The notes under the pieces: model-generated
What the model was told of the DNA's origin: nothing
Databases searched by the model: none
Seen by the model: the letters and a program-made list of their open reading frames with translations, nothing else
Made by a program: the position numbers and the translations under genes
Source of the DNA: Candidatus Terraquivivens tengchongensis
Lineage (GTDB): Archaea > Thermoproteota > Nitrososphaeria_A > Caldarchaeales > Wolframiiraptoraceae
Assembly (NCBI GenBank): GCA_023261845.1
Contig: JALNJZ010000003.1
Coordinates: forward strand, 79,383-143,382
Direction of reading: 5' to 3'
DNA length: 64,000 nt
Part shown: positions 974 to 59,249 of the stretch, one piece after another
Position numbering within the stretch: position 1 is the first letter of the stretch
Layout: each line of letters begins with the position of its first letter

Positions 974-2056
974 TTGGTGAGGAATAATATGACTGGACAA
1001 AAAGCCGGCCTACCGATCTTGAGCAAGTTTCTAACGCTTTGGATCTTCTTGGCAATGATAATCGGCATAGGCTTGGGCTATGTCTTCCCAGATATTGCTG
1101 ATGTGCTGGGTCAGCTAAGCATAGGCACGACCTCCATCCCTATAGCGATAGGTCTAATCTGGATGATGTACCCGCCTCTTGCCAAGGTAAGGTATGAGGA
1201 ACTTAGGAAGATAGTCACAGCCAAGGGTTCGAAGACTATGCTTACAGAGTCGCTTATACTCAACTATCTGGTAGGCCCGTTTCTTATGTTCGTCCTTGCA
1301 TGGATATTCCTCGCAGATTACCCTGAATTCAGAAACGGCGTAATCCTAGTAGGCTTAGCAAGATGTATAGCGATGGTTATCGTCTGGAACGACCTTGCTG
1401 ATGGTGACAGGGAGTGGGCTGCCATACTCGTCGCCCTGAACTCGGTCTTCCAGATTTCGTTCTATTCCGTATATGCCTACTTCTACATTACCTTCGTAAG
1501 TTCTTGGATTGCCGGTACCGGCACGGTAGTTGATATATCCTTTATAGAGGTTGCCACATCGGTCCTCATATACCTCGGCATACCGTTCTTTGGCGGAATG
1601 ATTACGCGCTTTTATTTCCTTAAAAAGAAGGGAAGGGAATGGTACGATAGAGTTCTCATACCGAAACTCGAGCCAACATCCCTCTTTGCCCTGCTGTTCA
1701 CCATAGTTGTGATGTTCTCCTTAAAAGGCGAATACATAATCACGCTTCCGATGGATGTCGTAAGGGTAGCAATGCCGTTGCTTTCTTACTTCGTTATAAT
1801 GTTCCTCGTATCCTTTCTGGTTGGCTACAAATCTGGTCTTGATTACAGCAGGGTCACTTCACTGGCTTTTACGGCCGCAAGCAACAACTTTGAGCTCGCG
1901 ATAGCCGTGGCTGTGTCCGTTTTTGGCTTAGCCTCAAAGGAAGCCTTTGCTACAGTGATCGGCCCCTTAATAGAGGTTCCAGTGATGATCTCTTTGGTAA
2001 ACGTGGCACTCTGGTTTAGAAAGCGCCTTTACGAAAAAATAAAAGCAGTCGTATAA
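974..2056 (+). CDS. acr3: ACR3-family arsenite efflux transporter (start may be 977 or 989)
   Basis: [38 protein letters not shown] and GPLIEVPVM motifs; about 10 hydrophobic segments. Confidence 0.95.
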
Positions 2057-2248
2057 ATCCACAAAATTCAAAAACTTGTTTGGTAAGGAGTGCTAAATGT
2101 AACATAGCGTTTCGCCGTGCGCTCTGGCTAATTTGGAATCCAGATTGAAGTTTAGGATTTTCTTGAAGGTTAGCTTTGTACAAATTTCCAAAAGCTTCCC
2201 CATCATTAGAATTGTAAAGTGACGTTTTTACTATTTTAGAGTGAAATG

Positions 2249-2255
2249 TATAAAT
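2249..2255 (+). promoter_or_regulatory. TATA box for putative ncRNA
   Basis: TATAAAT begins 30 nt upstream of the first base (2279) of the structured GC-rich element. Confidence 0.55.
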
Positions 2256-2278
2256 CAGTGTAAGTATTGTGTTAATTT

Positions 2279-2485
2279 GCGTCGTCCGGAAAAGGAGAGG
2301 CTGGCGCTAAGCAACACCTGGGGGAAGCCTCAGGTGTTGTATGCGTCGACCCATGCCCAGCGCTCCGGGGCTGCTTTGGCAGTACCTCCAAGCTGGGTAT
2401 GGGTGGGAGGTGCCCGTAGGGCATCAGGGGTTAATCCATGGAGGGTGCCCTAGCAGGGAGGCCCGCCATCTCCGAAAGACGACGC
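2279..2485 (+). ncRNA. Unassigned highly structured ~207-nt RNA
   Basis: ~64% GC by hand count within AT-rich flanks; ends pair (GCGTCGTC/GACGACGC); long hairpins 2311-2340, 2349-2404 and 2409-2425 whose G-U wobbles work only on the + strand. Confidence 0.7.
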
Positions 2486-2507
2486 AATTATAATTAATTC
2501 TTGTCAT

Positions 2508-3179
2508 TTAGGCCTTTTCATATGAACCGCATGATGCGTTCTTAAGTCTCATCATTTGCTTAACAAACTCGTAATATTCCTGCGGCGACAACTCGCTAAC
2601 CATTACTTCGTCAACGTTTATCACGTAGATCATGTAAAGCCTTGCGTTAAGTATCTCTTCAAGACTAACGGGCGGTTTCGTGTAGTAGAGGTCGCAGATT
2701 CTTTTAATGTAAAGTATCTCTTCCTTAGTCCTGTCCCTTGGTGGTTTTAAGAATACATGTGGCACTTGGACGATGTTATGTGGCGGCGTTCCGATGCCGA
2801 ACTTTTTTGCAAAAGCGCTGTACCTAGCTATTTTGCTGGCAACCCTGGCTAAGAGATAGGTATTGGGGTCGAGTGCATGCTCAGGAGGCACGAAACCTGT
2901 CTCTATCTCGATTATGATGTTACCATCACCTTTTACTCCATATATATCGCATGTGAGTATCTCGTTAAGCTTATGCTCAGCGTCCACCTCATATCCCTTA
3001 ACGATTAGGTCGGCAGCGCAGACGACCTCCATCACGGAATGGTTTATCTTAACCATGTTGGCTTCGTATAACTTACACAATTTTTTATACACGTCGTCAA
3101 GTTTGTTTACAACTTCTTTGCCGTACTTATCGCCTATTTGCGCGATGACTTTCAAGACGTCTTCTTCGAATTTATTCAT
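2508..3179 (-). CDS. Conserved archaeal hypothetical protein, probable PD-(D/E)XK-like fold
   Basis: E…CDIYG…IIIEIETG pattern; ATG at 3179 is more plausible than the ORF-track start at 3326. Confidence 0.65.
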   Translation of the reverse strand: MNKFEEDVLKVIAQIGDKYGKEVVNKLDDVYKKLCKLYEANMVKINHSVMEVVCAADLIVKGYEVDAEHKLNEILTCDIYGVKGDGNIIIEIETGFVPPEHALDPNTYLLARVASKIARYSAFAKKFGIGTPPHNIVQVPHVFLKPPRDRTKEEILYIKRICDLYYTKPPVSLEEILNARLYMIYVINVDEVMVSELSPQEYYEFVKQMMRLKNASCGSYEKA

Positions 3180-3360
3180 CAAAGCTGTCAAAATGCTTGA
3201 TAAAGATAAACTTTTGATAAACTCCAGAAGCCACCGCAAATAACGAATGAACTGGTTTTTAAGCTCTGGCCATAATTGTAGAGCTGCTCTATGGATTAAT
3301 ACCGTCTTACTACTCGTGTTAAACACTTAAAACGTGATTGATGATATTACATAACCAGAG

Positions 3361-38563: not shown

Positions 38564-40039
38564 TTGAATCAAAGCTTTGGTATGAACAATATACCGCTAA
38601 AGAAGTTAGATGAAAACGTATGGGTTATAGACAAGAACTTCAAACAAGGTATGAGAGTACCTGTTACGATTTTCGCATCTGAAAAACTGCTCCAAAAAAT
38701 GACGCAAGACAGAACGCTTGAGCAAGGTGCAAACGTTGCTATGCTTCCAGGCATATACAAAGCCAGCATAGTACTCCCCGACGCACACGAAGGATACGGA
38801 TTTCCTATAGGAGGTGTGGCCGCCATGGATGCAACCGATGGTGTCATATCTCCGGGAGGTGTGGGATACGACATCAATTGCGGCGTTAGGCTAATGGTAA
38901 CAAACCTTACCGTAAAGGACGTTATGCCCAAGCTAAAGGAGCTAGTAGATACGATCTTCAGGAATATTCCTGCAGGTCTTGGAAGCAGGCGGAAGGACTT
39001 TAGGGTGAGCCCTTCAGACCTTGATAGGATAGCAATAGAGGGCGCGCGTTATGTTATAGAAAGGTATGGCCTCGGGTGGAACGAGGACATAAAGCACATA
39101 GAGGAGGAGGGCGCTTTAGAAGGAGCGGACCCTTCAAAAGTCTCACCAACCGCTAGGAGTAGGGGCGAGTCCCAGATAGGTACACTCGGCAGCGGTAATC
39201 ACTTCCTTGAAATACAGAGGGTTGACAAAATATTCAACCGCGAAGCTGCGAAGATCATGGGAATAAATCACGAGAATCAGATAACGGTCTTGGTCCATAC
39301 AGGCAGTAGGGGTTATGGCCACCAAATATGTAGCGATTACCTAAAGGTCATGGAAAGGGCGGCCCACAAATATGGAATCAGGCTACCTGACAGGGAGCTT
39401 GCGTGCGCACCTGCCAACACGCCCGAGGCTGATCAGTACCTTAAAGCATTCACATGCGCAGTTAACTTCGCGTTCGCAAACAGGCAAGCAATTAGCCACT
39501 GGGTTAGACAGAGCTTCGAGGAGGTGTTCAAACAACCAGCAGAATCCCTTGGAATGAAGCTCGTGTACGATGTAGCCCATAACATCGTGAAGCTCGAGAA
39601 GCATATGGTAAACGGTGAGACAAAGGATGTTTACGTTCACCGAAAAGGAGCGACGAGGAGCTTCCCCGCTGGACATCCGCTCGTGCCTAGCGATTACAGA
39701 AGCATAGGACAGCCCGTAATAATTCCTGGCTCGATGGGAACAGCAAGCTGGCTTTTGCTAGGGAATCCAAAGGCTATGGAACTGAGCTTCGGTAGCACGG
39801 CTCACGGAGCTGGAAGAGAAATGAGCAGGGCAGGAGCAAAAAGGCGTTATACGGGTCTAACTGTTATAAAAGAGATGGAAAACAAAGGCATAATCGTCAG
39901 GAGCGACAGTACGGAGACGTTGATAGAAGAGGCCGACGAAGCATACAAGAACGTTGACGAGGTGGTTGAGGTAAGCCATGCAGTAGGGATAGCGACAAAA
40001 GTGGCCAGATTTGTTCCTATAGGCGTAATTAAAGGTTAA
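38564..40039 (+). CDS. rtcB: tRNA-splicing ligase RtcB (start probably 38582)
   Basis: PDAHEGYGFPIG, GYDINCG, GSGNHFLE, HRKGAT, HGAGR. Confidence 0.97.
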   Translation: MNQSFGMNNIPLKKLDENVWVIDKNFKQGMRVPVTIFASEKLLQKMTQDRTLEQGANVAMLPGIYKASIVLPDAHEGYGFPIGGVAAMDATDGVISPGGVGYDINCGVRLMVTNLTVKDVMPKLKELVDTIFRNIPAGLGSRRKDFRVSPSDLDRIAIEGARYVIERYGLGWNEDIKHIEEEGALEGADPSKVSPTARSRGESQIGTLGSGNHFLEIQRVDKIFNREAAKIMGINHENQITVLVHTGSRGYGHQICSDYLKVMERAAHKYGIRLPDRELACAPANTPEADQYLKAFTCAVNFAFANRQAISHWVRQSFEEVFKQPAESLGMKLVYDVAHNIVKLEKHMVNGETKDVYVHRKGATRSFPAGHPLVPSDYRSIGQPVIIPGSMGTASWLLLGNPKAMELSFGSTAHGAGREMSRAGAKRRYTGLTVIKEMENKGIIVRSDSTETLIEEADEAYKNVDEVVEVSHAVGIATKVARFVPIGVIKG

Positions 40040-59172: not shown

Positions 59173-59249
59173 TGGTGCCGCCGGTGGGATTTGAACCCAC
59201 GCCAAGGGATTATGAGCCCCCCACTCTGGCCAGGCTAAGTTACGGCGGC
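59173..59249 (-). tRNA. tRNA with CAT anticodon, elongator Met-like
   Basis: GCCGCCG/CGGCGGC acceptor stem, loop CTCATAA, T-arm GTGGG-TTCAAAT-CCCAC, encoded ACCA, no intron. Confidence 0.9.

Follow-up and report, generated by a model that had tools for sequence, protein, structure and literature searches.

The window, a stretch of 64,000 nucleotides from Candidatus Terraquivivens tengchongensis, belongs to a genome of 1.22 Mb (14 contigs, 99.4% complete). Close to its start, a structured RNA gene on the + strand lies between a transporter gene and a convergent gene for a protein of 223 residues; a P-type ATPase gene is also among the genes flanking the RNA. The features of the locus, in window positions, are as follows.

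974-2056, + strand: SBF/ACR3-type transporter gene, flanking the RNA
2230-2256, + strand: promoter block ending in TATAAAT (2249-2255), the box lying 24-30 nt before the outer helix begins
2279-2485, + strand: precursor RNA of ~207 nt, defined by conservation boundaries and a fold z of -7.5 (MFE); outer helix extendable to 2277-2487
2486-2510, + strand: A/T-rich spacer with short T runs, a probable termination zone
2508-3326, - strand: 272-aa open frame flanking the RNA, with its actual start at the ATG at 3179
2511-3179, - strand: partner protein gene, 223 aa, converging on the RNA gene, whose 3' end is 25 nt away

The RNA coincides with an island of GC content 0.62-0.65 (100-nt windows over 2301-2450), as against 0.30-0.45 in the flanks, and is as sharply bounded as an earlier note on this DNA had claimed. 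In an alignment of the seven genomes of the genus that included flanking sequence, the promoter block and both ends of the RNA were invariant or nearly so in 7/7, while the surrounding spacer and flanks varied. Conservation runs from the promoter block up to the final base of the terminal helix and no further. The TATAAAT box that had been noted upstream thus falls inside a conserved element, and TATA-like boxes in other genera stand at the same distance from the RNA as in the window. A run of at least four T is present within about 15-20 nt past the outer helix in other genera, and such runs suggest that the spacer at 2486-2510 is the probable site of termination. No reading frame of note is found within 2279-2485. 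With blastn, one match per genome was obtained in 7/7 members of the genus; the gene is single-copy, and the many copies that would mark a MITE or another dispersed repeat were not found. The proposal of a stand-alone, promoter-driven, structured ncRNA on the + strand is supported.

The secondary structure of the RNA was predicted for both strands. The + strand has an MFE of -119.9 kcal/mol (z = -7.52), a value that none of 200 dinucleotide shuffles matched, and the - strand is weaker at -95.6 kcal/mol (z = -4.72). All helices that had been drawn from the letters alone are present in the MFE fold, which contains the following elements.

2279-2286/2478-2485, + strand: terminal helix GCGTCGTC/GACGACGC (MFE fold)
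2294-2298/2469-2473, + strand: helix GGAGA/TCTCC, or P2 (MFE fold), closed in the circle described below by GAAA across the junction
2311-2323/2328-2340, + strand: 13-bp hairpin with a GAAG loop (MFE fold)
2349-2361/2392-2404, + strand: 13-bp stem enclosing GCTGC-TTTG-GCAGT (MFE fold)
2409-2415/2419-2425, + strand: hairpin (MFE fold)
2302-2348, + strand: P3, an arm of the four-way junction
2349-2404, + strand: P4, an arm of the four-way junction
2409-2464, + strand: P5, an arm of the four-way junction

The GGAG(G)GTGCCC(G)TAG repeat pointed out in the earlier note is likewise real, and it reflects two alternative pairings of GGGCAUC. As read from predicted folds, distant orthologues appear to favour the long-range GGGCAUC pairing.

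Exactly one copy of the RNA, at 84-90% identity, was found by blastn in all six other genomes of the genus, and nothing credible was found in 54 other relatives. A covariance model (R1) built from the seven genus sequences recovered full-length relatives in three more genera of the same family. When applied to whole genomes, R1 missed most of the orthologues that were later matched locally at 30-62 bits, so that its whole-genome misses are no evidence of absence. An exact-pattern scan of one genome per species identified carriers in Candidatus Terraquivivens, Geocrenenecus, Wolframiiraptor and Nitrososphaeria/Caldarchaeales MAGs. Common to the carriers are a terminal helix, a loop of 5'-NGGRANA and 3'-GANN, a short helix GGAG/CUCC and three long arms. 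The most conserved sequence lies in the hairpin tips, and that of the first arm (YUGGGG-GRWG-CCYCAR) is nearly invariant in the window's family, whereas a second Caldarchaeales family departs from it. Both the RNA gene and the protein gene are missing from one genome in each of two genera that otherwise have both (G014 of g5 and G038 of g6), although an assembly gap would look alike. No blastn match to the g5 RNA was obtained in G014 and three g3 genomes, nor any to the g6 RNA in family f3 and most of family f4, at distances for which blastn is too weak to indicate absence.

Covariation was assessed on two sets of sequences. Within the genus (7 sequences), compensatory changes were present in 10 of the 73 predicted pairs. 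The larger set of 18 sequences was drawn from five genera in two families of Caldarchaeales and from one further family; here, 63/73 pairs contained double changes, which 0/500 shuffles reached, and 93.6% of cells paired, compared with 38-42% when partners were slid by 1-3 columns. The alignment of the 18 sequences was fitted to the structure of the model, which favours pairing, but the structure is secure in view of the slide control and of how large the effect is. The outer helix (2279-2286/2478-2485) is paired in 100% of cases, and seven of its eight pairs have double changes among the 18 sequences. The RNA covaries in both sets.

The terminal helix and its adjoining loop together constitute an archaeal bulge-helix-bulge (BHB) motif, consisting of an 8-bp outer helix, a 4-bp central helix (CGGA/UCCG) and two AAA bulges, each of which sits 3' of its own central-helix strand. 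The motif is defined in an excerpt of PMC7714728 as a 4-bp helix flanked by two 3-nt bulges. Its parts are laid out as follows, with reference to the RNA contig described below.

2279-2286, + strand: 5' strand of the outer helix, pairing with 2478-2485; absent from the RNA contig; the discarded 5' 'exon'
2287-2290, + strand: 5' strand of the central helix, CGGA, pairing with UCCG at 2471-2474
2291-2293, + strand: 5' bulge AAA with the 5' cut, from BHB geometry; RNA junction at 2291-2295
2471-2474, + strand: 3' strand of the central helix, UCCG, complementary to CGGA
2475-2477, + strand: 3' bulge AAA with the 3' cut, from BHB geometry and the RNA junction
2478-2485, + strand: 3' strand of the outer helix; absent from the RNA contig; the discarded 3' 'exon'

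This 3-4-3 geometry is present in 35 of the 36 orthologues, and the central helix is fully paired in 29; six Geocrenenecus orthologues have one A.G in it. The orthologues represent Caldarchaeales (Terraquivivens, Wolframiiraptor, Geocrenenecus and others) together with one further family. The central helix covaries, being CGGA/UCCG, CGGG/CCCG, CGGG/UCCG or CAGG/CCUG, and the outer helix measures 8-13 bp in all orthologues except L056 (6 bp) and L092 (7 bp). The circles predicted across the 36 orthologues are of 153-195 nt. In the BHB conformer of the precursor, which is 1.5 kcal/mol less stable than the MFE at 37 C and level with it at 75 C, the inner helix h' has just 1-4 bp, placing the motif at the relaxed end of hBHBh'; according to the excerpt of PMC7714728, (alpha-beta)2 splicing endonucleases are said to accept relaxed BHB motifs. 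The earlier note had read GGAGA/TCTCC as a plain continuation of the terminal helix, a view that does not hold, since in the precursor this helix competes with the central helix of the BHB. Readings of the CGGAAAA/GAAA loop by eye as a K-turn, a loop E or a hammerhead fitted no register and were replaced by the BHB.

A scan of both strands of the whole genome for BHB geometry gave 1,175 raw matches. Given that so loose a scan yields many chance matches, filters for helix length, stability, TATA box and T run were added. Just two sites in the 1.22-Mb genome passed the filter for BHB plus stability (an outer helix of at least 9 bp, no more than two G.U pairs and a folding energy of at most -0.40 kcal/mol per nt): the RNA at 2279-2485 and one site inside the 23S rRNA.

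One RNA run, a public sediment metatranscriptome (X15), covered part of the stretch. On mapping to 1900-3300, the RNA was represented by one 214-nt contig with a word depth of 109.6, covering just 2291-2474, and is therefore expressed. The contig passes from 2474 back to 2291 ('goes back 184'), joining 2474-2478 to 2291-2295 with a 4-nt ambiguity within AAAG, and its first and last 30 nt are identical, corresponding to 2391-2420. We take the word length of the assembly to be 31 letters, for which a 214-nt contig is the yield expected of a 184-nt circle. Neither 2279-2290 nor 2475-2485 is contained in the contig, and depth was 0 over the promoter region, the downstream spacer and 2511-2651; some bins of the protein gene and all flanks carry no contig, and these zeros are to be read only jointly with the joint. 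Within the protein gene, 2685-3003 is covered by two further contigs, which match without a mismatch at a depth of 3.4-4.9. In the two DNA runs X1 and X10, contigs pass straight through the locus and have no joint. The joint and the missing terminal helix, taken together, indicate that the dominant RNA species is closed and is devoid of the terminal helix; the circular junction derives from one assembled contig in one metatranscriptome of one study, and contigs give no molecule ends. In principle, reverse transcriptase could have been helped to switch templates by the 4-nt microhomology (AAAG).

In the archaeal BHB, cleavage occurs after the second bulge base. Application of this rule, checked against canonical tRNA intron geometry, gives a product of 184 nt at 2293-2476, within the 4-nt ambiguity of the observed joint.

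2293-2476, + strand: mature circular RNA of 184 nt, a four-way junction of P2, P3, P4 and P5; exact junction ambiguous by 4 nt

The circular form has an MFE of -102.6 kcal/mol, with P2 capped by a GAAA loop that is formed across the ligation junction. Stops are present in all three frames, and the circle therefore has no endless ORF. The ends at ~2279 and ~2485 that had been predicted for a linear, ~207-nt mature RNA were not seen in the metatranscriptome, in which the contig closes on itself and the 184-nt circle without the terminal helix is the sole RNA-assembled form. Hence, the island does encode a structured ncRNA on the + strand, but the terminal helix does not form part of the mature RNA and is instead the processing stem that holds the BHB. 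The genes for a candidate processing pathway are present in the genome. Two genes of the EndA family (tRNA_int_endo, PF01974) score 105.3 and 61.5 bits, in an (alpha-beta)2 pattern, and an RNA ligase gene lies within the window.

38723-40036, + strand: RtcB RNA ligase gene (PF01139, 578.8 bits; G000:C5:118105-119418), the presumed circularising enzyme

From this gene content, EndA and RtcB would be expected to make the circle, and it is the circle, rather than the 23-nt ligated stem, that would be the product that matters.

When open frames around the RNA were clustered, the partner protein (~220-235 aa) was the only neighbour common to 16/16 loci; other neighbours were genus-specific. In Caldarchaeales, its gene is convergent with the RNA gene and their 3' ends abut or overlap. 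No Pfam family could be assigned to the protein, the best match being Hjc at E = 0.21 in one of 13 members, and no NCBIfam model or PDB sequence matched it. An AlphaFold (AF2) model based on an alignment of 13 sequences had a pLDDT of 91.3, and residues 44-200 of this model are predicted to form a restriction-endonuclease-like (PD-(D/E)xK) core. Comparison by VIA-align gave Z values of 9.8 for 3dnx (rmsd 2.2, 103 aligned), 9.4 for XisH (2okf), 8.8 for AF1548 and 7.5 for NucS, with weaker matches to Can2, Hjc and tRNA-splicing endonuclease subunits. The best Foldseek E-value was only 5e-3, the top matches all being nucleases of the PD-(D/E)xK fold. The residues E51, D78, E91 and E93 are invariant, with E93 in the place of the usual (D/E)xK lysine. 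At E <= 1e-3, the family extends to more than 6,227 database proteins, and every name among the 120 matches listed was 'hypothetical protein'; matches in the ESM Atlas were to unnamed archaeal clusters alone.

The partner protein was found in 191/401 sampled genomes of the phylum, a tally that takes in a genome flagged as unpublished (G411). Its distribution across the sampled genomes looks vertical, with many families nearly full: it is present in 9/9 genomes of family f18, 49/64 of f5 and 10/12 of f10. Within the order, it was found in 20/23 genomes of f1, 12/14 of f2 and 3/4 of f3, but in 0/13 of family f4 and 0/2 of genus g3. One genome (G029) has a second, broken copy of the protein gene.

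The linkage of RNA and protein was counted in flanks of 1.5-2 kb to either side of the protein gene, and the groups with results to report by genus or family are given below.

g1, within the order: BHB RNA beside the protein gene in 7/7
g4, within the order: BHB RNA beside the protein gene in 3/3
g5, within the order: BHB RNA beside the protein gene in 5/5
g2, within the order: BHB RNA beside the protein gene in 8/8
g6 of f2, within the order: BHB RNA beside the protein gene in 6/6 assessable
g14 of f2, within the order: RNA beside the protein gene in 2/2, one without a clean BHB
g7 of f3, within the order: BHB RNA of the second type beside the protein gene in 2/2
g9 of f2, within the order: BHB RNA beside the protein gene in 0/3
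f53, outside the order: BHB RNA beside the protein gene in 2
f52, outside the order: BHB RNA beside the protein gene in 1
f14, outside the order: BHB RNA beside the protein gene in 3/5
f18, outside the order: BHB RNA beside the protein gene in 3/4
f21, outside the order: BHB RNA beside the protein gene in 2
f42, outside the order: BHB RNA beside the protein gene in 1/2
f45, outside the order: BHB RNA beside the protein gene in 1

Outside the order, a clear BHB RNA was thus present in 13/42 genomes, with two more being doubtful (f43 and f10). The remaining 27/42 yielded no BHB RNA in the 1.5-2 kb around the protein gene; these include f5 (0/9), f31 (0/2), f20 (0/2) and the single genomes of f6, f15, f19, f22, f27, f38, f46, f47 and f55. 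Among the 13 positive genomes, two are of a tandem type seen in f53. In a single-contig f53 genome of 1.58 Mb, the orthologue (R1, 30.4 bits; central helix CAGG/CCUG; predicted circle of 194 nt) lies downstream on the strand of the protein gene, in tandem rather than convergent, and a second f53 genome is alike. The other 11 carry a second RNA type, which in 10 of them is divergent from the protein gene. This type has an outer helix of 10-14 bp, a central helix RAGY/GCUU and a 3' bulge that is mostly AGA, and its predicted circles of 77-202 nt are mostly one long irregular hairpin and hence rod-like. It usually has its own TATA box, often has a T run, and mostly lies divergent from the protein start, about 90-340 nt away.

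Given that the filter admits about one chance match per genome, the occurrence of a BHB RNA within 2 kb of the protein gene is far beyond chance. The linkage is retained although both the orientation of the genes and the shape of the RNA vary. In five complete f5 genomes, a pattern search for the second type gave two matches, both chance hits in coding-like sequence, and when loci outside the order were scanned with a simple P1-J-P2 descriptor, no match turned up in the vicinity of the protein gene. The many protein-positive genomes in which no RNA is adjacent leave room for a looser relation.

The data are probably best explained by a stand-alone gene for a 184-nt circle made by EndA and RtcB, an undescribed family coupled to a nuclease-fold protein and likely to act as an RNP. 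In the proposed sequence of events, an archaeal TATA promoter of its own would drive synthesis of the precursor RNA, the ends of which would pair into the 8-bp outer helix. The tRNA-splicing endonuclease would then cut in both bulges, and RtcB would join the ends of the excised piece. The product would be a covalently closed RNA of 184 nt, folded as a very stable four-armed junction with P2 capped by the ligation-made GAAA. Such a circle could serve as the RNA partner of the ~220-aa protein, either as scaffold or as regulator within an RNP, the ring providing a heat- and exonuclease-proof form of this scaffold or regulator for a nuclease-fold protein. A circular-RNA-protein complex is the most likely reading of the RNA-protein pair; we infer that the protein binds the RNA and that protein and circle work together. 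More tentatively, and with somewhat less than even confidence, it may be proposed that many Thermoproteota carry an undescribed module in which a dedicated BHB circular-RNA gene, with a rod-shaped or four-armed product, and a nuclease-fold protein form a circular-RNA RNP, the first cellular RNP on an obligately circular RNA, spread over Caldarchaeales, a Nitrosocaldus-like family and at least six further families. If so, the ring could activate, restrain or target the nuclease.

Several other explanations were weighed against this reading. Were the RNA a linear, stand-alone ncRNA of ~207 nt with a functional terminal helix, the circular contig would be a minor by-product or an artefact. Such an RNA would accord with the full-length fold, terminal helix included, being the MFE, with the covariation of that helix and with the circle being supported by one RNA run alone. 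Covariation of the outer helix is, however, equally expected of a processing stem, and a linear RNA sits badly with a self-closing contig that overlaps itself by 30 nt at a depth of 109.6 and omits 2279-2290 and 2475-2485. Moreover, the cut sites coincide with the BHB in 35/36 orthologues, and the 4-bp central helix covaries at these sites though it is outside the MFE fold, which counts further against a linear product; we regard it as distinctly unlikely. That the RNA belongs to a known class in strongly diverged or permuted form (a minimal type-T RNase P, an SRP RNA, or a C/D or H/ACA guide) is very improbable indeed, despite a size resembling that of type-T RNase P RNA, a host that is a thermophilic archaeon of the TACK lineage and the permuted, circular SRP RNA of Thermoproteus described in an excerpt of PMC4731332. 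The RNA belongs to no Rfam family: cmscan of the whole window at gathering scores returned two tRNAs alone, and at E <= 10 the region 2150-2600 gave three weak matches, each of them either on the minus strand or in a flank and taken as chance, with none on the + strand RNA. Genes for a canonical archaeal RNase P RNA (RF00373, 165.9 bits) and for SRP RNA (RF01857, 120.1 bits, on contig C12) were identified elsewhere in the genome, in agreement with the earlier view that the RNA is not RNase P, SRP RNA or tRNA. The type-T model RF02357 had no match, but its control matched nowhere either, and that search alone is uninformative; type T was dropped on the combination of no match at E <= 10 and the canonical RNase P RNA at another locus. 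The absence of C/D boxes was also borne out, since 2279-2485 contains neither RTGATGA nor CTGA. ACA occurs once, at 2314 within a helix, and in no hairpin is a pseudouridylation pocket followed by ACA.

The arrangement of the two genes suggests further alternatives. Convergent type I toxin-antitoxin pairs act by pairing of overlapping 3' ends, and the RNA might likewise be a cis-antisense regulator of the protein gene, its structure serving stability alone. In several genera, the 3' part of the RNA does overlap the end of the protein reading frame by about 24 to 70 nt, and both genes are transcribed in X15. In the window's own genome, however, the RNA ends at 2485 and the frame at 2511, so that the two do not overlap, and the tandem order in f53 and divergent order in ten outside genomes leave no conserved antisense pairing. 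As the overlapping part is what the BHB removes, and the most conserved sequence is in hairpin tips far from the overlap with the protein gene, antisense control is considered highly unlikely. A selfish or defence module would comprise a domesticated BHB intron with its endonuclease, or a nuclease toxin restrained by RNA in the manner of a type III toxin-antitoxin system, rather than a housekeeping RNP. The predicted nuclease fold of the partner, the differing neighbours of the pair in different genera, the lack of the protein in g3 and f4 and the broken second gene copy in G029 would all suit such a module. It is nevertheless judged unlikely, given that the pair is single-copy, that close to half of the genomes sampled have the protein, with nearly complete coverage of many families and an apparently vertical distribution, and that tandem RNA repeats as in ToxI are absent; nor were repeats, an integrase or target duplications seen around the pair among the neighbouring open frames listed.

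The preferred reading, a dedicated gene for a BHB-made circle with a protein partner, may be compared with known systems. In Archaea, BHB cutting and ligation are known for intron removal, rRNA maturation and repair of a permuted SRP RNA gene. The present locus resembles BHB introns and circular pre-rRNA intermediates in its motif, its presumed enzymes and its circular excised piece. It differs in that the gene appears to be there solely for the circle, with its own promoter directly before the outer helix, and in that the 'exons' are the strands of a processing stem, with no host tRNA or rRNA. Bacterial Y RNA genes adjoin the gene for Ro (rsr), whose protein binds Y RNA. The two systems are alike in keeping a structured ncRNA gene beside a protein gene, but they have no relation in sequence or fold, and here the RNA is circular, the protein is predicted to have a nuclease fold and its binding to the RNA is putative. 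In Thermoproteus, as given in an excerpt of Plagens et al. (2015, PMC4731332), a permuted SRP RNA becomes circular via a BHB, and circularization repairs the permuted gene; that excerpt thus offers a like case of an ncRNA gene whose product is a functional, BHB-made circle, whereas the present genome has a normal SRP RNA and the 184-nt RNA resembles no known family. An intron of tRNA-Trp, described in part of PMC12558985, carries a C/D box sRNA, and its BHB-excised circle is a functional small RNA; the present RNA has no C/D boxes, lies outside a tRNA gene, and is much larger and four-armed.

The archaeal circular RNAs covered in excerpts of the literature are tRNA introns, rRNA intermediates, circular or permuted 23S rRNA, C/D sRNAs, 5S, SRP RNA and omega-RNA isoforms. 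In a literature search, no paper was found in which a dedicated BHB circular-RNA gene stands alone beside a gene for a nuclease-fold protein, although the supplements of circRNA surveys may list such loci. Making a very stable ring appears to be the whole purpose of this conserved and strongly expressed gene, which is tied to an uncharacterised protein of predicted nuclease fold encoded by about half of the phylum's sampled genomes. The pair therefore offers an entry point both to the roles of non-intron archaeal circular RNAs and to those of a widespread 'hypothetical' protein. One of the carrier genera, Wolframiiraptor, has a cultivated member, which makes bench tests possible.

At least seven other families carry, next to homologues of the partner protein, a second and rod-like type of RNA gene that is flanked by a bulge-helix-bulge (BHB).

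Loci with BHB RNA genes of the second type: L071, L075, L076, L078, L081, L084, L117-L120, L122, L124 and L128

In this second type, the central helix is formed by RAGY/GCUU, the 3′ bulge is AGA in most cases, and circles of 77-202 nt are predicted. The conserved arm loops of these RNAs differ by family, as exemplified by GAAACGGCUGAAGA in f18 and GAGAUAACAUCAAA in f14. A candidate for a further variant was observed in family f43.

L123:1668-1818, strand ambiguous, near-palindromic 150-nt hairpin immediately upstream of the protein gene

The outer helix of this hairpin is perfect over 14-19 bp, and both its BHB register and its strand are ambiguous; the partner RNA may have a third form in this structure.

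Positions 456-629 of locus L092 from genome G416 hold a clear circular-RNA orthologue, with CGGG/CCCG and a predicted circle of 153 nt. The contig, of 2.1 kb, also carries an apparent convergent protein gene alongside the RNA orthologue. G416 is binned in the Caldarchaeales family f4, which is otherwise devoid of both the RNA and the protein genes. This locus may be a genuine exception within f4, or its assignment to an f4 genome may be an error of binning. A second copy of the partner-protein gene, disrupted by several stop codons, was observed in G029, a genome of the Wolframiiraptor genus (C26:63777-64366), where an intact copy is also present.

Within the genome from which the window derives, the sole match besides the circular-RNA gene to combine a strict BHB with a stable fold was located at C10:9101-9408 (L109). 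Given that this match lies inside the 23S rRNA gene, with the locus covered by positions 628-1717 of the LSU model, it is probably the result of chance geometry within the rRNA structure.

Comparison of the window with the RNA contig from the sediment metatranscriptome run X15 revealed C instead of T at positions 2302 and 2387. The C at 2302, which converts a U.G pair to C-G, was also present in three DNA runs and is therefore a strain difference. By contrast, C at 2387 was seen in the RNA run only and could be either a strain difference or the product of editing.

Other genes in the window are as follows.

705-788, +, tRNA gene (56.1 bits) with a long variable arm
38723-40036, +, RtcB RNA ligase gene, ∼36 kb from the circular-RNA gene in the same 64-kb window
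59176-59249, -, tRNA gene (63.3 bits)
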